Of a stretch of 64,000 nt of DNA, positions 6,328 to 58,800 are shown one piece after another (within the stretch, counting starts at the first letter, position 1; every line of letters starts with the position of its first letter). Under the pieces are notes generated by a model. It was given only the letters and a program-made list of their open reading frames with translations, did no database searches and had not been told where the DNA came from. The translations under genes were made by a program, and so were the position numbers. Location of the stretch: assembly GCA_000165345.1 (NCBI GenBank), contig CM000431.1, positions 896,001-960,000 on the forward strand, given 5' to 3'.

Positions 6328-7908
6328 TCAGATCAACTTGCTAATAACAGAATTTGAAATGCTTAGAGCAAGCTTAGGAAACTCATTTGAAAGTTGAACG
6401 AATTTAGGACTGTTAATTAGTACATCTACATGACAGGATGCAAAATCAACACAAAATTTGACAAGTTGATCAATTTTACAACGATGAGCAATAATAAGGA
6501 TTTCGCAAACATTATTAACTTCCACTAATTGTTTAACAGTTTTAATGCATAAATCAGAAAGAGCTGATAAGTTATAGGAATCTGCAATAAGTAATACATT
6601 ACACAATGTTTGGAGATCAGTTTCATCCAAGTAAGAAGTATAAAGAAATCTAATAATGACTTTGAATTCTTTTTTCGGAATATGTTCAAGACGGATTTCT
6701 TTTGAATTTGTTTCAGCCATGCCATTTTTGAACATTGATTTAAAGTATTGACTTTGAGCAACTAAAATGCATTTGTGTGCATATAAAGTTTCTTCATTTT
6801 CAAGAATGAAAATAATATCGCTAAATTCTGGATTATCAACAAGACTTTCCAAATTTGAAAGCATTGGTAATGAAATATTTTTGCTATGCATTGAACACGA
6901 GAACTTTCTTATATCTAATAAATAAGTATCCGATTTCCAACAGTTACCGTCATATCCACCAAATAAAAGACATTTACCGCCTGGAATAGTTGTTAGGGAG
7001 TTTCTTTGCCTAGGACTTGGAGAGTTCTTCTCAATTATCCTTTCCCAACGTACTATTGAAGGTAACTCAGAAATATCAAGAATAAATAAATCATTACACC
7101 TATTTTTTCCATCATATCCTCCAAACATTACAGCAGAAACATCATCTAATAAAGCTAAACTGTGACCTTTTCTTGCTGATGGACAGACACCAAAGACTTT
7201 TGGGGTTTGAAATTCTTTTTTTTCTGGATTATATAATGAAACATCACCAATATACTCTTTACCTGTGTTTCCACCAAAAAATATGATTCCTTTACTTGAA
7301 GAAATAGCACAATGACCATTTCTGTATCTTGGAATATAATTTTCAAATTCTATTTCATTCCAAGTCATTTTTGCAATATCATAAACCCATAAATCATTAA
7401 AACATTGAATTCCATCAAAACCTCCAAAAAGATAGAGCCTTCCAAAAATTCGTGTTAAGGAATGGCATGCCCTGGCTGAAGGTTTTTTTAACTTATTTGA
7501 AACCTTAACACGTTTCCAGCTTCCCAAAAGTTCTTCATTCACTTCTTCAGTGTAATTAAATGCATTCAAGTTATCGCTATTTAAATGATCTGTTCCTTTT
7601 ACTGTAAATTCATACAAATCACTAAGCCAAAATTCACCATTGTGACCTCCATGTATATATAATGAATTCCCATATACGGCAGATGCATGATTATTTCTAT
7701 TTTTTGGCCTCTTTTCAGAAGGTATCAATTTTTGCCAAAACATTACTTCTGAACTCGTATATAACACATAAAAATCATTTAGTGCTTGAAATCCATTCCA
7801 ACCACCAAATAAATATAACTTATCTTCTATTATGTTACACGTATGTGCAGCTCTTGGGGATGGGAGTTTACCCCTGAATTCCCCTGACATCCAAGGAGTT
7901 AATGACAT
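6328..7908 (-). CDS. Kelch-repeat protein with C-terminal BTB/POZ domain (LZTR1-like order: Kelch beta-propeller first, BTB last)
   Basis: Six Kelch-like repeats (LYLFGG.., IYVFGG.., W/Y spacing). C-terminal DIIFILENEETLYAHKCILVAQSQYFKSMF is a BTB domain. Confidence 0.8.
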   Translation of the reverse strand: MSLTPWMSGEFRGKLPSPRAAHTCNIIEDKLYLFGGWNGFQALNDFYVLYTSSEVMFWQKLIPSEKRPKNRNNHASAVYGNSLYIHGGHNGEFWLSDLYEFTVKGTDHLNSDNLNAFNYTEEVNEELLGSWKRVKVSNKLKKPSARACHSLTRIFGRLYLFGGFDGIQCFNDLWVYDIAKMTWNEIEFENYIPRYRNGHCAISSSKGIIFFGGNTGKEYIGDVSLYNPEKKEFQTPKVFGVCPSARKGHSLALLDDVSAVMFGGYDGKNRCNDLFILDISELPSIVRWERIIEKNSPSPRQRNSLTTIPGGKCLLFGGYDGNCWKSDTYLLDIRKFSCSMHSKNISLPMLSNLESLVDNPEFSDIIFILENEETLYAHKCILVAQSQYFKSMFKNGMAETNSKEIRLEHIPKKEFKVIIRFLYTSYLDETDLQTLCNVLLIADSYNLSALSDLCIKTVKQLVEVNNVCEILIIAHRCKIDQLVKFCVDFASCHVDVLINSPKFVQLSNEFPKLALSISNSVISKLI

Positions 7909-10790: not shown

Positions 10791-13700
10791 ATGAATATAA
10801 ATAAAGAATTAATTAGAGAATTAAAGTTGGAAGATATTCCAATTAACTTAATACTTGATGCAACTTGTAAATCTCCTCCTGGAATAAAAAATAAGTTGAA
10901 TTCAAGAAGAAATGATTTAAATGGCTTTGATGAGAATTCTTCTATGGACGAACCAGGATTAAGAATAATGACAGAAGGAGGGATTTCAAGAGAAAGCTAT
11001 TATTACAAAGATCAAAGTATAATAGAAAATATTTCAAAAATTGGTAATTTAAAAGAAAGTAAGAAAATCTATGAATCTAGTGTTAATAATGAATCAAATT
11101 CAGAAATATATTCGAAAATTAAAAAATCTACAACTAATTATGAATCTAAAAAGAACAGAAATATTCCAAGATTACATCTTCCAATCAAGACTTTGAATAA
11201 TGATATTAAGGAAGAACAATTATCAAGACAAGATAAATCCTCTGATAATAATGATTTTATAAATGATGATTCTTGTCATAATTCAAAGTATGATGTTTTT
11301 AATAATAATAGAAAAGTTAATTTATCAGAAAACGAATTGGAAATTGGTTATTCTCCTTTACATTCAAATAATTTGTCCATGTATTTAAATAATTACTATT
11401 CTAACCGAGATGATACCAAATTTGATAAAGAAGTTAATCATTTACAAGAAAAGTTACCAAATACTTTGAATACTTTTGAAATTTCAGATAATAGTAGCAA
11501 ATTCAAAGATCATCAATTAAAATCTATTTTTGAAAATTATAATTACTCTAAATCTGATCCATCGGAGACAAATTTTGAATTAAACCATATAAATAGAACA
11601 TTAAGTGAAACAAGTTCTAGTTTACAAACAAAACATTATCAAGAATATAAATATGATTCAATTAAGAAATTTGATTATAATGAAGAAAAATCTAATATTA
11701 CCAATTCAATATTAAACCGTGAAAAAGACAAAGACAAAGACAAAGACAAAGACAAAGATAAAGATAAAGAAAGTGATAAAAATCTAAGTAACCGTTTAGA
11801 TAGATTGATTCCTGTTTCAAAGTTATTAAAACACGAAGATAGTGAAATAAAATTGAAGGAAATAACTAATAGAGAGAAATATTCTAATATATTTAAAAAT
11901 GATGATGAGTTTACAAGCATCTTTCAGAAATGTTGGGATGATGCAGGAAACGAATTAAGAAATAGAAATGAGAATCATTTAAATGAAGGTAATACAGAAG
12001 AATCTGATAAAGATTTATATTTGAATCATGTTCCATTTCAATCTGACTTAATTATGGTTAATTCAAAAAGAAAGATTAAGACTACAATACCAATAGAAGC
12101 TATGAATAATAGTAATAATAAAGTTCTTGCTTATAATAGTAGTTATTATTCTGATTCAATTAATCCAATGGGTTTATTGAAGTATGTTAAGAAACAAAAT
12201 CAAAAAGATGAATTATATGTAAATATGAATAATAAAATAAACCAACAAACAGATAGAGGAACTTATGTATTATTGGCAGAAGATATGAGTACAAGAGCAT
12301 CAACTTTTAATAATTTGGCAAGTTTTGGAGTTAATAGTAATATTGCACTAGAAACTCATAGTAGTGGTGGTAATCATAATGATTCAAACTTAAATTATAA
12401 TATAATAGAAAAAGCTAAGAATAATAAGGAAGATTTTGATGATTTAACGGAATTAGATTATAAAGAGGATATTATATCAGTTGATAAAGTCAGTCATTCT
12501 ATTGTTAATGGCGATTATTATAGACAAGAAATTAAATCATATGAAGGTAAAAATAGGTTAATAAATGAGACAGAGTTACATCGGATTAATAATTCAGATT
12601 TGGAATCAAATCTTGATCTTGAATCTGGTAGTAATACTAATAATAACAGAATTATTACTTATAATAAAGATGATGACATTAAGAGTATTGTTGAAAATTT
12701 TTTGAAGATTGAAAAAAATAATGAAAGTAAATATAAGAATAAGAAGATGGTTAGGTTATATAAAGATGATCCAAAAGTATCTATTCAGAAATTGAGAGAT
12801 AATTTAAAGAATATTGAAAATAAAAGATTAGGGAATATTTCAAATAATTTACTATCAGAAGAAAATATCCATAAGAGTATATATGAAGAATTTAACGAGG
12901 TTAGAAATAAATTACCAAAGAATAAAGAATTTATTATAGATATGGTTGATGAAAACAAATATGATTATGGATTTAGTTTTGAAGTATTTAAAAAAGATGA
13001 TAATATGAAAATTACTGATATGGGAATGAAGATACAAGAATTTTACGCTCCAATAACATCTTCTTTAGATTCTAAAAAAAGAGAAAAAGTAGAAGGTTTA
13101 GATAAAAGTCATTTTATTAATATTCCGAATATTGAGATTGAGGAAATTAGTGTGAGTGATCAGAATGAAGTAAATGGCAGTTTGAATGTACATGAGCTAA
13201 AAATGGTGGAGAATATTCAGGAGGTTTTTAAAGATGAAAAAGTTAAAGGAAAAGGAAAAGGAAGAATGAAAGAGGAGGAGGAGGAGGAGGAGGAGGAGGA
13301 GGAAGAGGAAGGGGAAGAGGAAGAGGAAAAGGAAGAGGAGGAAGAAGAGGAAGAAGAAGGAAAAGAAAAAGAAGGAGATGATGAAGAAGATGATGGAGAA
13401 AAGGGGGAAACAGAAGAGGATATAGATTTTGTTGAAGGAAAAGAAGGATATTTTAATACAAGTACAAGATATTATAACAGCTTGGGACTAACTGAAGATT
13501 TTCTACTGGTTTTCATGAACTTTAGTTTAGTAAGGATACTATCATCAAATTCTTATGGGAATACATTTAAAGAAATGAAGGAATTGAAATTATTGGAAAG
13601 AGCAAAAGAAGATAGAAAAAATATTAATAGGAATTGGAAACAAACAATAATGAATTATGAGAAATTGGGAATGTTTGCAGAAAAGAGAAATTTAATATTA

Positions 13701-15434
13701 GTTTTTGCTATTTTAGTAAACATTATATTAATTTCAATGGCAAATATAATTATTCCAATAGTTTATAGTATTAAAAATACACTATTTCCAATATTAACAG
13801 TAAATGCAGTTATTAACTTTCTTATATTTTACTTAATTAATGGTACTTTAATTTACATATTCACTAGAAAGATGAACAGTTTTAACAAATCAATTTTGAA
13901 TGACTATTTATTACTTTTACAGAGAATTAATCAAATGAGAAAAGAAAGGAGAAAGTTGGAGTATGAAGAAGTGGAAGAGGAGGAAGAAGAAGAGGAGGAA
14001 GAAGAAGAGGAAAAAGAAAAAGAAGAGGGGGAAGAAGTCTATAACTACGATATTAATCACAAGGGAATAAAAGACAGTAGTGAGATAGAGGAATTGGAAA
14101 AGAGAGAAATAGAAGAAGATATAATGGAATATATTTATAGTGAACTATTGTATTGTTATATTCAAACTATGCAAGATTTGAATACTGAAAGTAATAAAAA
14201 ATATAAAAAGTCAATGTGGTTATTTTTTGGAATTGGAATCGTTCAAATGACTTTATCACTATTTTTGGATACATTTGTAATTAATAAATTTAACTTTAAT
14301 GGATCATTTGTGAATATTTTTAATGTTATAAATTTGCTAATATCAGCAACACTAAATTTAATATATATAAGTAAAAAGATTGGAAGATGGGATCTTTTGG
14401 ATATATTTAATAAGAATTTACTTATAATTATGGATGGAGTAATTCAAGAAAATCAATTAAAGTTTTTAACTTATTCTTCTAGTATTGTTGAACATATTTT
14501 ATATTGGAATTATATATTTAATCATAGTAATGATAATAATGTCAATTGGAGAAACTTTGTTTCAAATATATCATTATTAGAAATGGACCAACATAAATTA
14601 CAAAATATTAAAAATAATAAGAATAAAAATATTAATGTATTATGCAGAATACATTTAGATATTAATAAAATACTAAAAACTCCCAACTCTAATAATAATA
14701 TTAATGAATTATGGCCATTCTTTTATCTACATTATAATTATATTCAAAAAAAATTAATAATATCATCTCATAATTTAATTTTATACAAACAAGAGAATAA
14801 AGTTCATCAAAAAAATAATCATTTAATGTCAATTCCTGTTAATTTAATTTCCATTGAATCTATTCAATCTTCAGTTTTTCCATGGGCATTTATATATAAT
14901 AATAGTGGAAAAATGATAGAGAAAGATAATCATTTAGTTACTAATATTAATATGGAAAATAATAATTTAAATTTCAAAAATCAAATTCAGCAATATATTG
15001 AAATATTAGAGAATTTCATTTTCTCATCAGAAAATCAAAGTCTTACAATCAATTCATTACTAGAATTTACTGACACTTTTAAAAAGAAATATCAAACAAA
15101 TAATTTTCAAATGTCTAAAGAATTTCAAAATAAATTAAGTCAAATTTTTTATAATTATAATTTTATTTCATTATACGATAATAATAATTCAGGCGCCAAA
15201 ACACATTATAAGGAGGAGTCAGACAACTGGCGCCTGGATGAAAGTTTGGAAATAATTAAGTTAAAGGATGATCCATTATATATTTTAAATTGCACAATAC
15301 CAATAGAATATTTACTAAATATGGATATAAATATCAGCTTTGAAGATTTAGTTGCAAAAGATGAAGTTATGAAGTTACAAATTGCCTGTTTTTCTTTTGC
15401 TGACCTATTGAGTATATATACAGCTATTAGTTAG
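10791..15434 (+). CDS. large lineage-specific protein (1547 aa). It has (DK)n and two poly-Glu/Gly blocks, plus a cluster of hydrophobic helices (aa about 960-1200), suggesting a membrane anchor.
   Basis: Uninterrupted 4.6 kb ORF. Low-complexity acidic repeats encoded by (GACAAA)n and (GAG/GAA)n. Hydrophobic runs LILVFAILVNIILISMANIIIPIVY etc. Confidence 0.7.
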   Translation: MNINKELIRELKLEDIPINLILDATCKSPPGIKNKLNSRRNDLNGFDENSSMDEPGLRIMTEGGISRESYYYKDQSIIENISKIGNLKESKKIYESSVNNESNSEIYSKIKKSTTNYESKKNRNIPRLHLPIKTLNNDIKEEQLSRQDKSSDNNDFINDDSCHNSKYDVFNNNRKVNLSENELEIGYSPLHSNNLSMYLNNYYSNRDDTKFDKEVNHLQEKLPNTLNTFEISDNSSKFKDHQLKSIFENYNYSKSDPSETNFELNHINRTLSETSSSLQTKHYQEYKYDSIKKFDYNEEKSNITNSILNREKDKDKDKDKDKDKDKESDKNLSNRLDRLIPVSKLLKHEDSEIKLKEITNREKYSNIFKNDDEFTSIFQKCWDDAGNELRNRNENHLNEGNTEESDKDLYLNHVPFQSDLIMVNSKRKIKTTIPIEAMNNSNNKVLAYNSSYYSDSINPMGLLKYVKKQNQKDELYVNMNNKINQQTDRGTYVLLAEDMSTRASTFNNLASFGVNSNIALETHSSGGNHNDSNLNYNIIEKAKNNKEDFDDLTELDYKEDIISVDKVSHSIVNGDYYRQEIKSYEGKNRLINETELHRINNSDLESNLDLESGSNTNNNRIITYNKDDDIKSIVENFLKIEKNNESKYKNKKMVRLYKDDPKVSIQKLRDNLKNIENKRLGNISNNLLSEENIHKSIYEEFNEVRNKLPKNKEFIIDMVDENKYDYGFSFEVFKKDDNMKITDMGMKIQEFYAPITSSLDSKKREKVEGLDKSHFINIPNIEIEEISVSDQNEVNGSLNVHELKMVENIQEVFKDEKVKGKGKGRMKEEEEEEEEEEEEEGEEEEEKEEEEEEEEEGKEKEGDDEEDDGEKGETEEDIDFVEGKEGYFNTSTRYYNSLGLTEDFLLVFMNFSLVRILSSNSYGNTFKEMKELKLLERAKEDRKNINRNWKQTIMNYEKLGMFAEKRNLILVFAILVNIILISMANIIIPIVYSIKNTLFPILTVNAVINFLIFYLINGTLIYIFTRKMNSFNKSILNDYLLLLQRINQMRKERRKLEYEEVEEEEEEEEEEEEEKEKEEGEEVYNYDINHKGIKDSSEIEELEKREIEEDIMEYIYSELLYCYIQTMQDLNTESNKKYKKSMWLFFGIGIVQMTLSLFLDTFVINKFNFNGSFVNIFNVINLLISATLNLIYISKKIGRWDLLDIFNKNLLIIMDGVIQENQLKFLTYSSSIVEHILYWNYIFNHSNDNNVNWRNFVSNISLLEMDQHKLQNIKNNKNKNINVLCRIHLDINKILKTPNSNNNINELWPFFYLHYNYIQKKLIISSHNLILYKQENKVHQKNNHLMSIPVNLISIESIQSSVFPWAFIYNNSGKMIEKDNHLVTNINMENNNLNFKNQIQQYIEILENFIFSSENQSLTINSLLEFTDTFKKKYQTNNFQMSKEFQNKLSQIFYNYNFISLYDNNNSGAKTHYKEESDNWRLDESLEIIKLKDDPLYILNCTIPIEYLLNMDINISFEDLVAKDEVMKLQIACFSFADLLSIYTAIS
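11721..11770 (+). repeat. coding (GACAAA)n hexamer repeat encoding (DK)n
   Basis: gacaaagacaaagacaaagacaaagataaagataaa. Confidence 0.9.
13271..13380 (+). repeat. coding (GAG/GAA)n purine tract encoding poly-Glu. A second block lies at 13969-14032.
   Basis: Direct trinucleotide repeats inside ORF 10791..15434. Confidence 0.9.
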
Positions 15435-24698: not shown

Positions 24699-26669
24699 AT
24701 GAATTCTTTTGGTGCAATAAATGGGCAAGGAGAAGATGATGATGACTTAGAACTTCAGCGTGCATTATCTGAATCCCTTCGCGAATTTAATAATACCAAT
24801 AATATATTAAAAAATAATGGCATTCAAACTCTGGATGAAAATAAAAAGCAGAGTAAGGATAACAACGATATTGAATTTATCAATAACTCTGTAACATTTG
24901 ATGATTTGATAAATTATTCAGAGTCTATGCAGAATGAATTGGTGAATATATTGAATCTTAATAATAATAATTGTAATAATTGTAAGAAAAAGAATGATAT
25001 TGATTCTTTAACTCAGATAATAACAGGAAAGAAAGTTATTATAGATAATAAATTACACGAACATTTTAATGAAACTTATGACCCCTATAAAGATAAAGAA
25101 TTAAAACCTTTACCCATTGACAATGTAAATGAAATTATTGAAATAATTTTTGGAATTAATGGAAATTTATTGGCTCAGGATGAAGACATTAAAAGATGGA
25201 TCTATCATTCAATTGAGTTTACATGTAATTCAATTCCAAAAATAGAAGATGATAATAAAACTGATTTTTTTAAGGAAAATCGATCAATTTTCACTTTTAA
25301 AGAAAACTTTAAAAGTATGAACTACTGTTTAATTCAACAAGGAGGTGGTCCTTGTGGAGTTTTAGCTTCCCTGAATGGATTTATTATAAGTCAATTAATA
25401 TTTAATCCTTTAAGGCTTAAAATGATTAAGGAAAAATATCAGGAAGATCTGGTTGAGTATTTGAATTCTATAAGTGAGGAGGATTGTTGGGAAGCTTTAA
25501 TTCAATCAATATGTATGATATTTTTCCAATCGTCTCCTGAAAGCAAGTATCGTGTTATTCAGTATAAACCATATGAAAAAATGGAAACACTTCAACAGAA
25601 TAGACATTTTGACTTGATAAGTAATTGTTTAATTGGAAATGGAAACAATTTGTATTATTATGTTGAATATGATGATATTATGGAAGTTTATAAATTCTAC
25701 TGGAGACGTTTAAAATCTGGAATCTTCTCTAATATTGGCTCATTATTTTCAATATTAGTTTCGATTGTTGGTTCAAGAACTCCAAATCAGATTCGCTTGG
25801 ATATGGATGACTTTACGAATCCTTTAGTAGGAATGTTTGGTCATTGTAGTCAAGAGCTTGTGAATCTATTTATCACAGGAAGTGCAGTATCTAATGTGTT
25901 TGATGGTGTAAAGATTTTGAACGATAATGGTGGAGGAACAGTAACAGGAGCAGGTGATACTAATGAATCGCTATCTTTAAAAGGTATTTATAAGAAGTCT
26001 ATACTAGGTTATTTAACAGAACATGAAGCATTACAGTATTGTAAAGTTGGATTAAATTATAAATATCCTCTTTATCCTATTTGGATTATTGTTAATAAAA
26101 ATCACTATAAATGCTCATTCAGTTTTAATTTCAATGAATGTATTCTAACCATTTCTCAAGAGTTTATTCAAGTTATGCAAAAAGCTTTTGAAAAGTTTGA
26201 TACTGAAAATTCTGGATTTATCTTTGATAATCAATTAGAAAAGTTTCTAAATGAAATTAATTTAAAAGACTGTATGTTTGAACTTAAAAAATTTAGTGAA
26301 AATGGAATAATTCTGTGGAATGATTTAAAGAAGTGTATATTAAATTTGGTGGGAATCGAAAATGAAGAAGATAATCAACTTAGAGGAAGTAGAACAGGAG
26401 ATAATTCTTTAATAAGCCAATATAAATTATGGACTTCTGTATATATTTTTGATGGTCAAAATCATATTGGAAAGAAATTAATCATTTCTACAATATTTCC
26501 ACTTGAAAACTATTCCAAAACTAAAAAACTTTACGATAAATTTTCTTCTAATCATAAACAAAATGACAATGATAAAAGAAAATCTATTGAAGAATTGGAT
26601 TTAATTTCAATTTTACAAACAAGATGGGGAGGAGAGACTGTAATTGAAACTAAAATCTTAAACCTATAA
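24699..26669 (+). CDS. MINDY-3 (FAM188/DUF4205) family deubiquitinase with an N-terminal UIM and a C-terminal EF-hand-like region
   Basis: UIM-like DDDDLELQRALSESLREF. The catalytic-Cys motif QQGGGPCGVLASLNGFIISQLIF aligns with human MINDY-3 EGGPCAVIAPVQAFLL. ITGSAVSNVFDG, LQYCKVG and YPIWII blocks are conserved. EF-hand-like FEKFDTENSGFIFDNQLEKFL. Confidence 0.75.
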   Translation: MNSFGAINGQGEDDDDLELQRALSESLREFNNTNNILKNNGIQTLDENKKQSKDNNDIEFINNSVTFDDLINYSESMQNELVNILNLNNNNCNNCKKKNDIDSLTQIITGKKVIIDNKLHEHFNETYDPYKDKELKPLPIDNVNEIIEIIFGINGNLLAQDEDIKRWIYHSIEFTCNSIPKIEDDNKTDFFKENRSIFTFKENFKSMNYCLIQQGGGPCGVLASLNGFIISQLIFNPLRLKMIKEKYQEDLVEYLNSISEEDCWEALIQSICMIFFQSSPESKYRVIQYKPYEKMETLQQNRHFDLISNCLIGNGNNLYYYVEYDDIMEVYKFYWRRLKSGIFSNIGSLFSILVSIVGSRTPNQIRLDMDDFTNPLVGMFGHCSQELVNLFITGSAVSNVFDGVKILNDNGGGTVTGAGDTNESLSLKGIYKKSILGYLTEHEALQYCKVGLNYKYPLYPIWIIVNKNHYKCSFSFNFNECILTISQEFIQVMQKAFEKFDTENSGFIFDNQLEKFLNEINLKDCMFELKKFSENGIILWNDLKKCILNLVGIENEEDNQLRGSRTGDNSLISQYKLWTSVYIFDGQNHIGKKLIISTIFPLENYSKTKKLYDKFSSNHKQNDNDKRKSIEELDLISILQTRWGGETVIETKILNL

Positions 26670-44125: not shown

Positions 44126-46225
44126 ATGGTAGAGACTTTTGCATTCAATGCTGATATTCAGCAGCTGATGAGCTTGATCATCAATACTTTTTACAGCAAT
44201 AAGGAAATCTTTTTGAGAGAATTGATTTCTAATGCCTCCGATGCTTTAGACAAGATCAGATATGAATCCTTGACTGATCCAGAACAATTAAAGAGTAATG
44301 AGGAAATGCATATTAGAATTATTCCAGATAAAGTTAATAATACTTTAACTATTGAAGATTCTGGTATTGGTATGACTAAGAATGAGCTTATTAACAATTT
44401 AGGTACTATTGCTCGTTCAGGTACAAAGGCATTCATGGAAGCAATCCAAGCTGGTGGTGATGTTAGTATGATTGGTCAATTTGGTGTTGGTTTCTATTCT
44501 GCTTATCTTGTTGCTGATAAAGTTACTGTAATTACCAAACATAATGGTGATGAACAATACATTTGGGAATCATCAGCTGGTGGTTCATTCACTATTACTA
44601 ACGATACATCAGACAATAAGTTACAAAGAGGTACTAGAATCATCTTACACCTTAAGGAAGATCAATTAGATTATCTTGAGGAGCGTACCTTGAGAGATTT
44701 AGTAAAGAAGCACTCAGAATTTATCTCCTTCCCAATTGAACTTTCTGTTGAGAAGACTACAGAAAAAGAAATCACCGATTCTGATGTCGATGAGGAGGAA
44801 GAGAAGAAGGAGGGTGAAGATGGTGAAGATGCACCAAAAATTGAAGAAGTTAAAGAGAAGGAACCAAAGAAGAAGAAGATTACAGAAGTAACTCAATCGT
44901 GGGACTTACTTAACAAGAATAAACCAATCTGGATGAGAAAACCAGAAGAAGTTACTTTTGAAGAGTACTCTTCTTTCTATAAATCAATCTCAAATGATTG
45001 GGAAGATCCTCTCGCAGTTAAACATTTCTCAGTTGAGGGTCAATTAGAATTTAAGGCAATTCTCTTTATTCCAAGAAGAGCTCCATTTGATCTCTTTGAA
45101 ACCAGAAAGAAGAGAAACAACATTAAGCTTTATGTACGTAGAGTATTCATCATGGATGACTGTGAAGAATTGATCCCAGAATTCTTAGGATTTGTTAGAG
45201 GTGTTGTTGATAGTGAAGATCTTCCATTAAACATTTCAAGAGAATCATTACAACAGAATAAGATCCTTAAGGTCATCAAGAAGAACATTGTTAAGAAATG
45301 TTTGGAATTGATCACTGAAATTACTGAAAAGCCTGATGATTACAAGAAATTCTATGAACAGTTCAGTAAGAATCTTAAGTTAGGTATTCATGAAGATACT
45401 ACCAACAGAAATAAGATCAGTGAGCTCCTAAGATATCAAACATCAAAGAGTGGTGAGGAACTCATAAGCTTAAGAGAATATGTTGATAGAATGAAGGAAA
45501 ATCAAAAGGAAATTTACTACATTACTGGTGAATCTATTCAAGCAGTACAAAACTCACCATTCCTTGAGAAGCTTAGAAAGTTAGATTATGAGGTAATTTA
45601 CATGGTTGACCCAATTGACGAATACTGTGTACAACAAATGAAGGAATTCGATGGCAAGAAGTTGAGATGCTGTACTAAGGAAGGTCTTACTTTAGAGGAA
45701 ACTGCTGAGGAGAAGGAAGCCTTTGAAGCTCTCCAGAAGGAATATGAGCCTTTATGCCAGTTAATTAAAGAGGTTCTTCATGATAAGGTTGATAAGGTTA
45801 TCACATCTCAGCGTATTTCTGACTCACCATGTGTACTCGTTACATCTGAATTTGGATGGTCTGCAAATATGGAACGTATCATGAAGGCTCAAGCTCTTAG
45901 AGATACAAGTATGACATCTTATATGATGTCCAAGAAGACTATGGAAATTAATCCATATAACTCTATCATTACTGAGCTCAAGACCAAGATTGCCAATGAC
46001 AAGTCTGATAAGACCGTCAAAGACTTGATTTGGTTACTCTATGATACTTCCCTCCTTACTTCTGGTTTCTCATTAGAAGATCCAACTCAATTCTCATCCA
46101 GAATCAACAGAATGATCAAGCTCGGTCTTTCTATTGATGAGGAAGATATTGTTGATGATCTCCCACCTCTTGAACCAGTTAATGATGCAGAGCTCCAAGC
46201 ATCTAAGATGGAAGAGGTTGACTAA
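44126..46225 (+). CDS. HSP90: cytosolic heat shock protein 90
   Basis: [22 protein letters not shown]. GxxGxG ATP lid. Charged linker. C-terminal MEEVD. 699 aa. Confidence 0.97.
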
Positions 46226-46689: not shown

Positions 46690-49116
46690 TTATACAGGAA
46701 TATGTATATCTAATCTTCCAGCTCTAGTAATACTTTCATCTAGCTCAAGGATATGTTTGTTTGAAAATGCAATCACAATAACGTTTTGATTCTTCTTTTC
46801 AACATTATCTAAACAAAGAAGAAGAGTAGTGAGTAGAGTTCTGGAGTCATTGGAATTTTTTGAAGAAAATTGATCATCATTTTGGTTGTTTTCCAAGAAT
46901 ATATTAGACTGAATTAAGTTTTGTGAAGTCCAATTCAAATTAAACATATTTTTAATTTTTTCTTTATGTGAATTAATTCTAAAAGAAATATCATTAAATA
47001 AATTTGGTGAATAATTAATGAAATTTTGGTTTAATTTGGACTCTTTGGAATCATTTGTTAAGCTTAAATCCATATTTTCTTGAAAAGAGAAAGTATCTGT
47101 TTTATTATTTTGAATTATAAAATTATTTGAAATTACATCAATTCCTTCTAGAATAAGTATTGTAGGAATATTTGTATTGAATAGTTGCCTAATATTTTCT
47201 TCAGACTGTCCAACATAAGGACTTAATAAAGTAAGTATATGTTTTTGTACAAGCTTGTAATTAATATATTGTTTTTGGATATATTTAATTAATTCTTGCT
47301 TTACAATAGAAAGTTTACTTCCATTTAAGTTATTTCTACTATTATATATAAGTATTCTTGGAGTAAATTGTTGATTCATTATTTGGTTTATTTTACTATA
47401 TTCATTCTCAAACAATTTGTAAATTATTAATTGATCATTAACTTGTTGTAATATTGATTTAATACTCTCATCTTTAAAACTAAAATCTCCAGTATTTAAA
47501 GTATTAATCTTCCCATCAAATTTTTCCACAGCTCTATTCTTAAATAATAGCATTTCTTTCTCTTGCAAATAATTATTATATAATGTATTATCAATTACTA
47601 AATTTCTAAATAATATTTCCACTACTTTATAAATTAATTTTTTATCTGAAACTCCAAAACATACTCTAATTATCCAATTCACCATATTAATTCCTGTTAA
47701 ATCATCTCCATTTTTTAATAAATCTTCCTTTAATTGCTCAAAACTATGTTTGTTCAAACTTTGATAATACATTAATTCCAAAAATGTGTCATAATTTTTA
47801 TCTAATAATAAAATAGATATATATTCATTCAATTCCTTTTTTAACCTCAAATATCTACAAAGTAACTCCTTTTCATCCAATTCAGTCTCATTATTAATTT
47901 GTTCTAATAGTAATAATTTAACATTTACATGCGAACACTTGGCGCCAAATGTGTGGAAATTATTTCTTGTCATTAAACATTTTAGGTGGTAAGTATTATG
48001 AAAAGAAGGTTTGGAAGAAATATTATTTTTTTTAAAGATATTAACAAGTTCTGGTTTTTGTGAGTCATTGTATTCAATAAGAATCAGTTTTTTAATGCAA
48101 GTAAATTTTGAAAAATGTTCTTCTAGTTGATCAATTAAATTGTCATTAATTGACAAATTTGAAAAAGATGTAATATAATTATACATAAATATATTAATGG
48201 AAATTATATTTTCCAAATTTGAAATATTAAATCTTGTGATTTCCTCTAAAATATCTTTAACTCTCTCAATTATGTTATTTCTAATATTTTTCAAAACTTT
48301 TATGGAAATATTATTCTCCATTACGTATTTATTCAGAATATACGTAGTATCTAAATAAAAATAACTTAAAGCAATATTATTATTATTAATAATGTTTTTA
48401 ATATTATTAATATTTTTAACCATAAAACTTTCAATTTCTAAATTTTTTGATGTATTATTATTTGTGTTAGAATTAAAGTTTAATTGATTCACATTTGGGA
48501 TAATTAATAGGTTTGAAATAAATTTCATGTAGGTATTCTGAAATTCTTCAGAAATTAGTTTATTCTCTTTAATATATTGAATTTGAAAAAAGTAGTATTT
48601 TTCATTTATTAAAAAAGGTAGGATTAAATTATTGAGTATATCTTTTAAATTATATTCTGTTGAAATAAATTTTAAGTAGTAATAGAATTGCCTTTTTAGA
48701 CCCTCCACTAATAAATTCTTATAATTTAGTAAAAATATATCTGATTGAGTAGTTAATTGTGAAAAAAGAGGTCCAGAAAACACAATATCTGATATAATTG
48801 TTCTATTTGTAATATTTAAGCAATTCTCATTTTTTATATATTTAATATATCCTTTATTAAAATGGCTAATACAACTTAGCCCAGAATGAATATACACTAT
48901 ATCTTCTTTACAAGGATTAATATCATTATTAATTTTAAAAAAAATAAGAAATTTCAAATTTTCCAAATTTAACTCGAGTAAAATAATTCTATCATTCTTA
49001 ATATCATCAAAATCATTATTAGTCAATTTATTCACTAGTTCTCTACTAATTAAAGAAATCCCATCTTTGAGGTCTTCTCTAACCTCGATATTGCATGGTA
49101 TTATATATCTTTTCAT
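46690..49116 (-). CDS. hypothetical 808-aa protein with a C-terminal degenerate AAA+ ATPase-like module lacking a Walker A P-loop
   Basis: LLSPYVGQSEENIRQLF..PTILILEGIDVI (Walker-B-like) ... VIVIAFSNKHILELDESITRAGRLDIHIPV parallels AAA yvGesE..vR.lF..iiFiDEiD .. viviaaTNrpd.lD.AllRpGRfDr.i.v. No GxxGxGKT. Confidence 0.65.
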   Translation of the reverse strand: MKRYIIPCNIEVREDLKDGISLISRELVNKLTNNDFDDIKNDRIILLELNLENLKFLIFFKINNDINPCKEDIVYIHSGLSCISHFNKGYIKYIKNENCLNITNRTIISDIVFSGPLFSQLTTQSDIFLLNYKNLLVEGLKRQFYYYLKFISTEYNLKDILNNLILPFLINEKYYFFQIQYIKENKLISEEFQNTYMKFISNLLIIPNVNQLNFNSNTNNNTSKNLEIESFMVKNINNIKNIINNNNIALSYFYLDTTYILNKYVMENNISIKVLKNIRNNIIERVKDILEEITRFNISNLENIISINIFMYNYITSFSNLSINDNLIDQLEEHFSKFTCIKKLILIEYNDSQKPELVNIFKKNNISSKPSFHNTYHLKCLMTRNNFHTFGAKCSHVNVKLLLLEQINNETELDEKELLCRYLRLKKELNEYISILLLDKNYDTFLELMYYQSLNKHSFEQLKEDLLKNGDDLTGINMVNWIIRVCFGVSDKKLIYKVVEILFRNLVIDNTLYNNYLQEKEMLLFKNRAVEKFDGKINTLNTGDFSFKDESIKSILQQVNDQLIIYKLFENEYSKINQIMNQQFTPRILIYNSRNNLNGSKLSIVKQELIKYIQKQYINYKLVQKHILTLLSPYVGQSEENIRQLFNTNIPTILILEGIDVISNNFIIQNNKTDTFSFQENMDLSLTNDSKESKLNQNFINYSPNLFNDISFRINSHKEKIKNMFNLNWTSQNLIQSNIFLENNQNDDQFSSKNSNDSRTLLTTLLLCLDNVEKKNQNVIVIAFSNKHILELDESITRAGRLDIHIPV

Positions 49117-56625: not shown

Positions 56626-58404
56626 CTACAAGATATGATGGTCATTAAACCTGAAAGAATACTTTGCAATTTCTTGATAAAGATAAGATAATGTCATTTT
56701 ACATATTTTAACGTCAGCTTCTATTGGTAATTTTAACTTTTTTTGATTCTCTTTTTCAAAGACTTCAAAACCAGATAGTTGAAGAATCTCAATTCCTTGA
56801 CTAAATTGGCCAATCGAATTTTTAAATATTTCATTTTCAAGACTTACTATTCTATAGAAGGGGTTATTTGGAAATGAAATAACATTTTTAAGTATAATTA
56901 CAATATTTTTAAGACATTCATAAATCTTTTCTTTATTTTTGGAAGCTCTTTCTGAAAAAATACTTTGAATAATTTTAATAACTTTTTCTTCAAATTCAAG
57001 ATCAACAACTTTATCAATTGGAAATTGAATAATAGGCCTAACAGGACGAAGTTTTTCTGGAGTTGATTTAGTTTTATAATAAACCTCCTCAAACAAATCA
57101 AGAATAAATCCATCAAAAGTGAATCCAAATTTTCTTTCTGTAATAAATTGAATAACTTCAGATGGTTTATAACCTAATTCAATTAAAAATAATGCTACAA
57201 TATTAAGTGAATGGTAATCGCCAGTGTTATCTACTAATAATACAGATTTACGTAAATGATGTGTTTGTCTAATAATATTAACAACTCCCCAATAATCCGG
57301 AGTTTCTGTATTATAACAAGGAACGCTATAATATTTAATTTTTGAATTTTTTGGGAAATTGAAGATTTCTGGCTGATTTGTCAAATTAACAATTTTTGAT
57401 ATGTTAAACTTATCTTTATATTTATCCCAATCATTATGTACAAGTATTCCAATATCACAAGTAAGAACACAAAAGTGAGTGAGAATAGGAAACAAAGGAA
57501 TAGATTCACATGCAAATCTGGATGGTAAATTATTATCAGAAAATTCTGAACAAATTGGATTTTCATCAATACATCCCTCATATCTTGGACTAAGTGAAGC
57601 AAATCCTCCAGCTAAAATGAAAATACGCTCAGGTTTACAAGAACAACAATTCATTATATCAAGAAAAGTCTGTGATTCATGTGAAACACGATCACCTCTT
57701 ATTGAAGCATTTCCTTCCCAAAGATGATCAAAAAGTACAATTACCTTATTATTAATTTGTTCAAGAAGCCAACTATTTATTGTTCTTGAATATCTTAATA
57801 TTGCATCTGAATATTTACTACTATTAATTTTTTTAAAAGCTAGCTCATTACTACTTTCATAAATAGTAGTGCTTTGCCTGGAAAAGCTTCTAAAAGGTTG
57901 TAAAGCTCCTATTACAGTTCTTTTCATTAAAGCTCCTTTTGATGCAAGTCTAGCCATGGCTTCCTCTTCTTCACTATTGGCTTCTAATACTTTAACATCA
58001 AAATAAAAACTTTGTGAATCAACAAAAGTAATACCACAATTACCAAGTGGATTTGAATTCTTTGATTGAGCCCAAAGATTAAAGAACATATTTGGTGTTA
58101 TATATCTAACTTTAAACCAAGAATTTTCTACTTCAATTTCTTTCCATTGAAAAGTTAAATCTTCTAAAGATTTCCATGGTCTTGGTATTCTTTCTTTAAC
58201 AGATTTACTATTAAATGATGGAATTTCTAATACTTTTTCTTTTTTATGCTTAATTTTCTCACAACCATCATTTGATTTTGCATTTTTTTTATTTATTTCG
58301 GAATTATCATCATTTTCAGGAACTTTTTCTTTAATTATTGAATCATTCCTCAAAGACACATCATTTCTTGAATCTAATTTGGACTTGGAACAATTAGAAC
58401 CCAT
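56626..58404 (-). CDS. MKP-like protein: N-myristoylation/palmitoylation motif (MGSNCSK), rhodanese-like region and a C-terminal dual-specificity-phosphatase-like fold. The HCxxGxxRS catalytic loop is replaced by VDNTGDYHS (probable pseudophosphatase).
   Basis: MG-x3-S start. KVIVLFDHLWEGN..RIFILAGGFASL resembles a rhodanese/CH2 domain. SVLLVDNTGDYHSLNIVALFLIELGYKPSEVIQFITERK resembles the DSP PTP-loop plus following helix, with the Cys and Arg missing. Confidence 0.6.
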   Translation of the reverse strand: MGSNCSKSKLDSRNDVSLRNDSIIKEKVPENDDNSEINKKNAKSNDGCEKIKHKKEKVLEIPSFNSKSVKERIPRPWKSLEDLTFQWKEIEVENSWFKVRYITPNMFFNLWAQSKNSNPLGNCGITFVDSQSFYFDVKVLEANSEEEEAMARLASKGALMKRTVIGALQPFRSFSRQSTTIYESSNELAFKKINSSKYSDAILRYSRTINSWLLEQINNKVIVLFDHLWEGNASIRGDRVSHESQTFLDIMNCCSCKPERIFILAGGFASLSPRYEGCIDENPICSEFSDNNLPSRFACESIPLFPILTHFCVLTCDIGILVHNDWDKYKDKFNISKIVNLTNQPEIFNFPKNSKIKYYSVPCYNTETPDYWGVVNIIRQTHHLRKSVLLVDNTGDYHSLNIVALFLIELGYKPSEVIQFITERKFGFTFDGFILDLFEEVYYKTKSTPEKLRPVRPIIQFPIDKVVDLEFEEKVIKIIQSIFSERASKNKEKIYECLKNIVIILKNVISFPNNPFYRIVSLENEIFKNSIGQFSQGIEILQLSGFEVFEKENQKKLKLPIEADVKICKMTLSYLYQEIAKYSFRFNDHHIL

Positions 58405-58471: not shown

Positions 58472-58509
<38 letters not shown>

Positions 58510-58800
58510 TAATCAACGAAACTTAACCTAAACTAATTATTATTATTCTTTTTTTTAATAACAATAATAATAATAATAATATAACTAAACTAGTATAAAT
58601 TTTTCAACTCAAATTTAGTAAAGTTATAATACAAGTATTTATTTCAAATATATTTACAGATTTCACTGGATCCAAATTTTGAATAATTATACAGCTCCAA
58701 TCTTGTTTATATTTGGAATTACCAAAGAAGAGTTAGTTATAGCGGAAATTATTGATAAGAATTATATAAAATATATATACATATATTATTTATTTATATA

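Follow-up and report, generated by a model that had tools for sequence, protein, structure and literature searches.

The window analysed here, a stretch of 64,000 nucleotides, encodes on its minus strand a 592-aa protein. In the first-pass annotation this was described as a membrane-anchored relative of the MAP kinase phosphatases (MKPs) whose phosphatase loop is dead, and which would serve as a MAPK scaffold or trap. The locus thus raised two questions: whether the domain assignments are correct, and what kind of partner such a protein would bind.

The gene and its orthologues

56626..58404, minus strand: complete single-exon coding sequence, 592 aa plus stop

The coding sequence is that of C. 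parvum Iowa II EAK88971.1 (UniProt Q5CU84, CPATCC_001407). Its identifier is presumably cgd3_3830, a guess made from the C. hominis tag CHM_3g3830; ID searches for cgd3_3830, TGME49_294570 and PBANKA_1404000 gave no match. The start at MGSNCSK is the first possible start codon after the upstream stop, and the sequence upstream of the ORF is an AT-rich microsatellite. The strings quoted in the first-pass annotation were placed at aa 221-234 (VIVLFDHLWEGNAS), aa 263-278 (ILAGGFASLSPRYEGC) and aa 388-426 (VLLVDNTGDYHS...ERKF).

The gene is single-copy, and the order IleRS - gene - DNA ligase I is also found in C. hominis and chipmunk genotype I. The neighbours (Hsp90, RPL19e, DNA ligase I, IleRS, a MINDY DUB and BTB-Kelch) were dropped as a functional clue because they represent ordinary eukaryotic gene order, which is uninformative on function.

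Comparison within Cryptosporidium was based on 11 orthologous sequences, and identity among the orthologues of this genus ranges from 43 to 98%. Outside the genus, orthologues were found in the chromerids Vitrella and Chromera and in Digyalum. A search of 1.84 billion representatives with a rhodanese plus dual-specificity phosphatase (DSP) profile returned only Vitrella and Digyalum besides Cryptosporidium. A homologue search with the mixed alignment yielded Cryptosporidium only, and with Vitrella and Digyalum the sole addition was Chromera. The four-part architecture and the Asp/His substitutions described below are common to Cryptosporidium, Vitrella, Chromera and Digyalum, indicating that the design is older than the Cryptosporidium/chromerid split. 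The whole protein is under strong purifying selection (dN/dS 0.10 against chipmunk genotype I).

A rhodanese domain followed by a phosphatase fold without catalytic residues

57568..58122, minus strand: rhodanese / Cdc25-homology (CH2) domain, aa 95-279 (AF2 fold match, hhalign, orthologue Pfam matches)
57673..57738, minus strand: VLFDHLWEGNASIRGDRVSHES, equivalent of the rhodanese 'active-site loop' (conservation within the genus)
57070..57513, minus strand: dual-specificity-phosphatase fold, catalytically dead, aa 298-445
57292..57333, minus strand: general-acid (D-loop) region YYSVPCYNTETPDY (LPATD of DUSP10 aligned to lpCye)
57208..57243, minus strand: degenerate P-loop VLLVDNTGDYHS, corresponding to (V)HCxxGxxR(S) (family-profile alignment to DUSP10)

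A Pfam search, one of the checks proposed in the first-pass annotation, did not detect either domain when the C. parvum sequence was used alone: there was no match to Rhodanese, and DSPc gave E=0.088 (13 bits against a cut-off of 33.5). Similarly, phmmer found nothing relevant in the PDB with the full protein or with the rhodanese region alone, and a Cryptosporidium-only profile was negative against the PDB. The two domains were detectable only once the Vitrella and Digyalum sequences had joined the profile.

The mid-protein rhodanese/CH2 domain that had been proposed was then supported in three ways. The Vitrella and Digyalum orthologues exceed the Pfam threshold for Rhodanese (E 6e-10 and 8e-8, respectively), and the Chromera orthologue likewise passes. 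The hhalign comparison with the rhodanese domains of DUSP6, DUSP10 and DUSP16 gave E 1.1e-5 and a probability of 82%, in a match covering only the C-terminal half of the domain, where LAGGFAxLSxxY..C aligns with LAGGFAEFSRCFPGLC of DUSP16. Finally, in the structure prediction that had been proposed as a check, the AF2 model matched STYXL1 over both the rhodanese and the DSP domains. (A full-length AF2 model made with the 11 Cryptosporidium sequences had a pLDDT of 56 and was left out of the fold search.) The top rank of STYXL1 reflects two-domain coverage, not orthology, because it was the only full-length rhodanese plus DSP chain among the matches listed; its sequence identity to the 592-aa protein is only 13-15%.

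The rhodanese domain carries large Cryptosporidium-specific insertions and has no active-site Cys: the Cys of catalytic rhodaneses and Cdc25 (CX5R or CRxGx[R/T]) would lie in the loop that follows the central beta-strand, here FDHLWEGNASIRGDRVSHES, which contains no Cys. Within the genus no other part of the protein is as conserved as the VLFDHLWEGNASIRGDRVSHES segment, which holds the longest invariant run (aa 223-234) and the best 20-aa window (85% invariant positions). This loop had low pLDDT in the model and is not conserved in chromerids. For the domain as a whole dN/dS was 0.026 against chipmunk genotype I.

For the C-terminal part of the supposed MKP, a 12-sequence family profile matched the catalytic domains of DUSP10/MKP-5, DUSP9, DUSP7 and SSH2 with E values of 2.4e-7 to 8.5e-4; over the active MKPs (DUSP10, DUSP6, DUSP16, DUSP9 and DUSP7), its best sequence matches, the range was 2.4e-7 to 1e-2. 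The profile segment LlvDssGdvhS was aligned to LIHCQAGVSRS of DUSP10, which places VLLVDNTGDYHS at the P-loop, as had been suggested. The loop reads VDNTGDYHS, with Cys replaced by Asp392 and Arg by His398, and with Gly395 kept. Since the domains are confirmed by the family profile and the orthologues, the loop is rightly assigned and the two catalytic residues are genuinely absent. Their loss is lineage-wide. The alignment with Vitrella and Digyalum shows no variation at D392, G395 or H398, the Chromera loop is VYDLSGSVHS, and Asp occupies the nucleophile position in all orthologues (at least 14); no intact HCx5R was found in any Cryptosporidium sequence or in Vitrella, Chromera and Digyalum. 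The dead domain (aa 298-445) is under selective maintenance rather than in decay: dN/dS was 0.052 against chipmunk genotype I, at a dS of 0.84.

It seems very unlikely that the domain is not dead after all and that Asp392 and His398, possibly with Cys363 of the D-loop region, have been repurposed for catalysis or metal binding. All three kinds of residue are typical ligands of metals, and the invariance of D392, G395, H398 and C363 from Cryptosporidium to the chromerids at a dN/dS of 0.05 is more than a scaffold would strictly need, but the general-acid position is unconserved (Asn365 in C. parvum; N, D, E, G or Y among orthologues) and no PTP-fold enzyme is known to work without the Cys/Arg pair.

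The rhodanese-DSP tandem is the MKP architecture, and on the evidence of the family profile, the AF2 match and the orthologue Pfam matches the first-pass annotation was correct in recognizing it. The domain order is the same as in the active MKPs DUSP10/MKP-5, DUSP6/MKP-3, DUSP16/MKP-7, DUSP9 and DUSP7. Unlike these, the 592-aa protein has no HCx5R signature, no conserved general acid and no canonical kinase-interaction motif, and has in addition the Cryptosporidium-specific rhodanese insertions, a lipid-anchor motif and a PUB domain. With a DSP fold and a substituted nucleophile Cys (sequence and AF2), it belongs with pseudophosphatases of the STYX/MK-STYX type. The prototype of the DSP pseudophosphatases, STYX, carries Gly in place of the Cys and can still bind phosphate; it has neither a rhodanese domain nor a PUB domain nor a lipid anchor, whereas the 592-aa protein has all three, the anchor being predicted. 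STYXL1/MK-STYX (DUSP24), a mammalian pseudophosphatase of the MKP family, likewise consists of a rhodanese (CH2) domain and a DSP fold without the catalytic Cys. Its nucleophile Cys is a Ser and its Arg is retained, in contrast to the Asp and His found here, and it lacks the PUB domain and the acylation motif. It functions as a binding protein without catalysis; one example is its structural role in radial spoke 3 (bioRxiv 10.1101/2025.05.19.654877).

The kinase-interaction motif and the MAPK reading

57919..57972, minus strand: EEEEAMARLASKGALMKR, helix lying where the kinase-interaction motif is found in MKPs (by-eye register with DUSP6/10/16 sequences)

According to the first-pass annotation the protein would be a membrane-anchored MAPK scaffold or trap. 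For this the rhodanese domain would have to dock a Cryptosporidium MAP kinase by means of a kinase-interaction motif, and the dead DSP domain would hold the phosphorylated activation loop unhydrolysed. The MKP architecture on which this rests is real, the best sequence-profile matches are DUSPs of the MKP subfamily (DUSP10, 9, 7 and 16), and the pseudophosphatase STYX binds ERK. A docking segment also appeared to be present: VLEAN-SEEEE-AMARLASKGAL, which is nearly invariant in Cryptosporidium, can be set in register with the DUSP6 segment and with ILEAIN-INCSK-LMKRRLQQDKV of DUSP16. However, the kinase-interaction motif of MKPs consists of two or three contiguous Arg/Lys residues (e.g. LRRLQKG; the MKP sequences used were checked against the PDB), and the EEEEAMARLASKGALMKR motif is degenerate, AMARLASKG against IMLRRLQKG, with the basic cluster cut to a single Arg (ARL against RRL or KRR). 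The segment was left unaligned by hhalign in the comparison with DUSP6/10/16, and the orthologues of Vitrella, Chromera and Digyalum lack it altogether, so it is no feature of the family. For these reasons the resemblance between AMARLASKG and IMLRRLQKG was rejected as evidence for MAPK docking. In addition, the replacement of Arg by His398 and of Cys by Asp392 leaves a pocket without phosphate-binding charge, and MK-STYX, the closest structure, is not known to bind MAPKs. No positive evidence for a scaffold or trap function emerged, and we regard it as unlikely.

A PUB domain at the C-terminus

56707..56934, minus strand: PUB domain, aa 491-566 (Pfam PF09409)
56824..56898, minus strand: 'PIM pocket' segment IILKNVISFPNNPFYRIVSLENEIF of the PUB domain (mapped onto the PNGase/UBXD1 residues of PMC6995525)

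Downstream of the phosphatase fold lies a PUB domain, which was overlooked in the first-pass annotation. Pfam PF09409 matched the C. parvum sequence alone with E 9.4e-16 (57.9 bits against a cut-off of 34.3), and every one of the 11 Cryptosporidium sequences scored above the cut-off, as did the Vitrella, Digyalum and Chromera orthologues. Its dN/dS against chipmunk genotype I was 0.079. When a PUB profile was compared with the PDB, the matches were the PUB domains of PNGase (4.9e-7), UBXD1 (9e-7) and HOIP (0.02). The PUB domains of these three proteins bind the C-terminal DDLYG motif of p97 (PMC6995525). Its presence directs attention to the Cdc48/p97-ubiquitin system and away from MAPK signalling.

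The canonical PIM pocket is made up of a Tyr (PNGase Y38), Asn41, Tyr51 and K/RxxN (R55/N58). Asn507, Tyr517 and Asn524 are kept in C. parvum, as in the PUB cofactors PNGase/NGLY1, UBXD1/UBXN6 and HOIP/RNF31, which share the fold and the Asn/Tyr/Asn residues; the three are invariant across the family in alignment A3, from which Chromera, with Phe for Tyr, was left out. In contrast to PNGase and UBXD1, the first pocket Tyr (Y38 and Y181, respectively) is replaced by Ile504, and the whole family has an aliphatic residue (I, L or T) there, as does the atypical PUB domain of SPATA2. The basic residue of K/RxxN (PNGase R55) is Ser521 in C. parvum and is lost in Cryptosporidium. In UBXD1 the Y181A substitution weakens p97 binding eight-fold, and the SPATA2 PUB domain, with Val at the site of the first Tyr, binds CYLD and does not bind any PIM peptide (PMC6995525). 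In view of these two changes, binding of Cdc48 by the domain is plausible but not secure.

The same changes would fit a SPATA2-like PUB domain that binds another, PIM-less partner such as a deubiquitinase or an E3 ligase and not Cdc48, the protein being a membrane adaptor for that enzyme. We consider this possible but not probable. The rest of the pocket, including the hydrophobic L505, V508 and V520, is conserved, RxxN is kept in the chromerid and Digyalum PUB domains, and the best PDB profile matches were the p97-binding PUB domains of PNGase and UBXD1 (E about 1e-6), not that of SPATA2.

The N-terminal acylation motif and tether

58384..58404, minus strand: predicted N-terminal dual-acylation motif MGSNCSK (Gly2 myristoylation, Cys5 palmitoylation; motif conservation)
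58123..58383, minus strand: disordered, fast-evolving K/N/S-rich tether, aa 8-94 (pLDDT, conservation, dN/dS)

The myristoylation plus palmitoylation signal noticed in the first-pass annotation is well conserved. M1, G2 and C5 are shared by all 11 Cryptosporidium orthologues and S6 by nearly all of them, and Met-Gly opens all 17 full-length N-termini. A Cys follows within three residues of Met-Gly in every copy from Cryptosporidium (position 5), Vitrella (position 3, MGCGSS) and Chromera (position 3, MGCASSK); Digyalum has no Cys after the first Met, and only Cys7 after an internal Met17. The PROSITE-type NMT pattern G-{EDRKHPFYW}-x-x-[STAGCN]-{P} was matched by 12 of the 17 N-termini, MGSNCSK among them; C. 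ryanae and C. bovis (MGHICS), C. muris (MGNICL) and Digyalum failed it. We infer from the motif that Gly2 is probably myristoylated and Cys5 palmitoylated, which would fix the protein to a membrane. Apicomplexan proteins with both lipids are usually found at the pellicle or plasma membrane. No rhodanese or PUB protein is mentioned in the main text of the myristoylome papers on Toxoplasma and P. falciparum.

Between the motif and the rhodanese domain, pLDDT was below 40 over aa 1-80 in the full-length AF2 model, only 11% of the columns are invariant over aa 8-94, and dN/dS of this tether was 0.36, as against 0.03-0.08 in the folded domains.

Relation to apicomplexan DSP(RHOD) proteins

The 592-aa protein resembles Plasmodium PfMKP1 (PF3D7_1305500) and TGME49_294570, of the DSP(RHOD) family, which are described as likewise having rhodanese and DUSP-like domains with degenerate catalytic residues and for which a pseudophosphatase role has been proposed. 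The family profile retrieved neither protein, and the literature examined makes no mention of a PUB domain or acylation in them. For PfMKP1 the putative pseudophosphatase character and the poor conservation of the catalytic residues have been described (PMC8949495, PMC2559854). Its disruption is reported to delay the transition from pre-S to S/M and to sensitise the parasites to heat shock (PMC5082630 for the heat-shock phenotype).

There is a lesser but real chance that the C. parvum protein is the orthologue of PfMKP1 and, like it, a regulator of the cell cycle and stress, which would be compatible with an adaptor function. The matching domain makeup agrees with this, the heat-shock phenotype (PMC5082630) would fit a link to proteostasis and Cdc48, and no C. 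parvum protein appears under DSP(RHOD) in the 2022 apicomplexan phosphatome table, which leaves the slot open. However, the rhodanese plus DSP profile found no Plasmodium or Toxoplasma protein at E<=0.001 among the 1.84 billion representatives. If the two are orthologous, the PUB/Cdc48 link would be a mechanistic lead for the cell-cycle delay and heat-shock sensitivity of the mutant.

A putative lipid-anchored adaptor

The explanation we favour, with a likelihood slightly better than even, is that the protein is a non-catalytic, lipid-anchored adaptor in which a dead MKP-like module is combined with a PUB domain recruiting a partner from the ubiquitin system, most likely Cdc48/p97. It is the presence of the PUB domain that suggests an adaptor without enzymatic activity and with a link to the ubiquitin/Cdc48 system, and not simply a MAPK trap. 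Myristoylated Gly2 and palmitoylated Cys5 would hold the protein at the membrane. The MKP-like module would offer a protein-binding surface, by analogy with STYX and MK-STYX, and the PUB domain would recruit its partner, most likely through the C-terminal tail of the AAA-ATPase Cdc48/p97. The pseudophosphatase module would recognise a membrane-bound client, and in this way Cdc48, or another PUB ligand, could be brought to that client. The domain annotation is solid; the mechanism is a hypothesis attached to it and is not demonstrated.

A more specific version, which we regard as doubtful, is that the protein is the founding, undescribed member of an apicomplexan/chromerid family (Cryptosporidium, Digyalum, Vitrella and Chromera) of Cdc48 adaptors built on a pseudophosphatase and located at the pellicle or plasma membrane, in which Asp392 and His398, perhaps with Cys363, may form a ligand or metal pocket. 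If true, this would be a new class of membrane-resident Cdc48 adaptor, with a dead phosphatase for client recognition and a divergent PUB domain for Cdc48/p97. Pseudophosphatases and Cdc48/p97 adaptors are each well known already. No known PUB protein joins the domain to a phosphatase fold, rhodanese domain or lipid anchor, and a narrow literature search on pseudophosphatase and PUB domain did not find any lipid-anchored protein uniting a pseudophosphatase with a Cdc48/p97 adaptor. The sole match of that search was, by its title, on myotubularin-related proteins.

Conservation from photosynthetic chromerids to Cryptosporidium, single copy number, synteny and constraint raise the value of the gene, which would offer a practical way into the question of how protein-quality-control machinery is coupled to a membrane in a minimal parasite. 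Judging from its N-terminus, the protein is likely to be a client of N-myristoyltransferase, an enzyme that is pursued as a drug target in Cryptosporidium (PMC10580320).

Identity and genomic context of the gene

The gene encoding the pseudophosphatase with a PUB domain lies in an AT-rich window (G+C about 25%) populated by eukaryotic housekeeping genes with few introns:

56626-58404, minus strand: open reading frame of 592 amino acids, whose MGSNCSK opens at the first start codon past the upstream stop

The protein was identical in sequence to C. parvum Iowa II EAK88971.1 (UniProt Q5CU84, CPATCC_001407), which databases list as "hypothetical protein" or as "PUB domain-containing protein". In C. 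hominis, C. tyzzeri and C. felis the copy carries the automatic label "Protein-tyrosine phosphatase-like protein with PUB domain", a name that already points to a PTP-like protein with PUB. The gene is flanked by IleRS and DNA ligase I, and C. hominis and chipmunk genotype I share this order. Between the gene and IleRS, which diverge from an intergenic stretch of 1.45 kb, two trinucleotide microsatellites, (AAT)n and (ATT)n, occur at 58472-58510 and 58562-58580; they precede the ATG by 70-180 bp. The old C. hominis TU502 model, from a contig of 1.6 kb, is a fragment of only 417 aa (equivalent to aa 106-522, starting MFFNLW); with neither acylation motif nor PUB domain, it could mislead orthology tables.

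Rhodanese and DSP folds with a dead catalytic site

The first-pass annotation had described a dead MKP-like phosphatase, and all the strings quoted there were found in the protein. When the C. parvum sequence was searched alone, Pfam returned no Rhodanese match, DSPc remained far below the cut-off (E 0.088) and phmmer against PDB was empty, so that a simple Pfam check would have made the idea look unsupported. The 12-sequence family profile (A4), however, matched the catalytic domains of DUSP10/MKP-5 (E 2.4e-7), DUSP9, DUSP7, SSH2 and DUSP16. It placed LlvDssGdvhS opposite LIHCQAGVSRS of DUSP10, so that Asp392 takes the place of the catalytic Cys and His398 that of the Arg, as the earlier assignment of the P-loop had it. 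From the same alignment, AlphaFold2 modelled aa 95-445 confidently (pLDDT 80.8, pTM 0.82), compared with pLDDT 56 for the full-length protein modelled from Cryptosporidium sequences only. With hhalign, the family rhodanese region aligned to the rhodanese domains of DUSP6/10/16 over its C-terminal half (E 1.1e-5). These results establish the rhodanese and DSP folds, and bear out the architecture and loop assignment of the first-pass annotation. Since the rhodanese loop contains no Cys, the domain is of the non-catalytic CH2 type.

The general-acid Asp of DUSP10 (LPATD) faces a variable family position (N, D, E, G or Y). In this region (57292-57333), two residues before the lost position, is an invariant Cys363, which adjoins the invariant Asp392/His398 loop; judged from sequence, these three residues could form a cluster that binds a metal or a ligand. 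That Asp, His and Cys form a repurposed site is, despite their invariance, very improbable.

Orthologues and selective constraint

The first orthologue search found Cryptosporidium proteins only (43-98% identity), in whose alignment M1, G2, C5, D392, G395 and H398 were invariant. A profile of aa 60-445, run against 1.84 billion representative proteins, gave only two matches outside the genus, Vitrella brassicaformis CEM31657.1 and a Digyalum oweni transcript; a later search added a Chromera velia orthologue. The Vitrella and Digyalum proteins exceeded the Pfam Rhodanese cut-off (E 6e-10 and 8e-8), had weak DSPc matches (E 5e-4 and 9e-7) and clear PUB domains. The proteins from outside the genus are less derived than the Cryptosporidium copies. 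Their P-loop equivalents (VYDHSGDVHS, IYDSLGKTHA and VYDLSGSVHS) share the Cys to Asp and Arg to His pattern, and no orthologue had an intact HCx5R.

Nei-Gojobori dN/dS values for C. parvum versus chipmunk genotype I (overall dS 0.63)
Whole protein: 0.10
Rhodanese domain: 0.026
DSP-like domain: 0.052
PUB domain: 0.079
N-terminal tether: 0.36

By these values the dead DSP-like protein is a maintained pseudoenzyme, not a relic. The most conserved stretch of the protein across the genus was the equivalent of the rhodanese active-site loop, VLFDHLWEGNASIRGDRVSHES (aa 223-244, 57673-57738), with 85% of columns invariant in its best 20-aa window. The loop is not conserved in chromerids; in the AlphaFold2 model it is flexible and at the surface, making it a good candidate interface that may serve genus-specific binding.

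The proposed MAPK docking

A MAPK trap, as proposed in the first-pass annotation, would be marked by a kinase-interaction motif, which we took as diagnostic. The Cryptosporidium AMARLASKG is in register with IMLRRLQKG of MKP-3, but has one basic residue instead of the two or three of the motif. Moreover, the segment was not aligned by hhalign to the DUSP6/10/16 rhodanese domains and is absent from the Vitrella, Chromera and Digyalum orthologues. A trap is therefore unlikely.

The PUB domain and its probable partner

The sole Pfam match of the C. parvum sequence alone, and the only feature seen by standard annotation, was a PUB domain (aa 491-566, E 9.4e-16), which the first pass had overlooked; it is present in every orthologue. 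Its profile matched the p97-binding PUBs of PNGase (4.9e-7), UBXD1 (9e-7) and HOIP (0.02). Pocket residues were mapped onto the UBXD1 and PNGase positions defined in PMC6995525. Asn507, Tyr517 and Asn524 are conserved, but the first pocket Tyr is replaced by Ile504 (aliphatic in all family members) and the K/R of K/RxxN by Ser521 in C. parvum, Arg being kept in chromerids and Digyalum. In UBXD1, Y181A weakened p97 binding eight-fold, and the SPATA2 PUB, with Val at the first pocket Tyr site, binds no PIM peptide (PMC6995525). Judged from these residues, Cdc48 is the most likely partner, yet not a secure one; a SPATA2-like PUB with another partner, which the aliphatic residue would suit, has perhaps one chance in four.

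A probable lipid anchor

Gly2 occurs in every full-length orthologue, and the acylation motif noted earlier for C. parvum stands. In Cryptosporidium the nearby Cys is residue 5, in chromerids residue 3 (Vitrella MGCGSS, Chromera MGCASSK). A PROSITE-type NMT pattern was matched by 12 of 17 full-length N-termini, including that of C. parvum, but not by C. ryanae and C. bovis (His3), C. muris (Leu6) or Digyalum. Retention of Met-Gly in four deeply separated lineages, and of a nearby Cys in three, argues for real dual acylation.

Proposed role and related proteins

Most probably, the protein is an adaptor without catalytic activity, tethered to a membrane. Myristate and palmitate would anchor it, and a flexible tether of 90 aa would hold the pseudo-MKP module, which would bind a client; PUB would recruit Cdc48/p97 or another ubiquitin-system partner. 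Domain architecture, inactive site, selective constraint and phyletic range are established by the sequence data, and lipidation, membrane location, client binding by the dead module and the PUB ligand are inferred. The closest known systems include the pseudophosphatases MK-STYX and STYX, the MKPs (by architecture), the PUB-domain p97 cofactors and PfMKP1, an apicomplexan rhodanese plus DUSP-like putative pseudophosphatase (PMC8949495). Among the matches listed, the top structural match to the AlphaFold2 model was STYXL1, a rhodanese plus dead-DSP pseudophosphatase that was lately assigned to radial spoke 3 (bioRxiv 10.1101/2025.05.19.654877); its rank is partly due to its being the sole full-length rhodanese-DSP chain among them, and indicates the same architecture, not orthology.

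The DSP(RHOD) class of the 2022 apicomplexan phosphatome (PMC8949495, Table S1) comprises PfMKP1, PbMKP1 and TGME49_294570 with no C. parvum member, so the gene was seemingly overlooked there. Orthology to PfMKP1, with a cell-cycle and stress role, would fit the shared domains; PfMKP1 was not among the matches of the aa 60-445 profile, and we consider this reading doubtful. No protein that joins an acyl anchor and a rhodanese domain to dead DSP and PUB domains was found in the literature searched for "pseudophosphatase" with "PUB domain". The outcome is mainly a well-supported annotation, to which a testable Cdc48-adaptor hypothesis is added.

Other genes in the window

6328-7908, minus strand: Kelch-BTB protein
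10791-15434, plus strand: open reading frame of 1547 amino acids without Pfam match
24699-26669, plus strand: MINDY-3/4 deubiquitinase
44126-46225, plus strand: cytosolic Hsp90
46690-49116, minus strand: Asn/Ile-rich open reading frame of 808 amino acids

The Kelch-BTB and MINDY-3/4 genes belong to the ubiquitin system; in a eukaryotic genome this is no reason for a functional link to the PUB protein. The 1547-aa product is probably repetitive or of low complexity; it is encoded where strand composition is most extreme in the window (12001-14000, GC skew 0.48, AT skew 0.20). In the 808-aa product the only recognisable feature is a distal portion of an AAA ATPase domain at the very C-terminal end (aa 749-807, ending RAGRLDIHIPV); neither a PDB homologue nor an evident downstream exon was found. 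At the Hsp90 gene G+C rises locally to 0.34, against about 0.25 for the window, as one would expect of a conserved gene with high expression.
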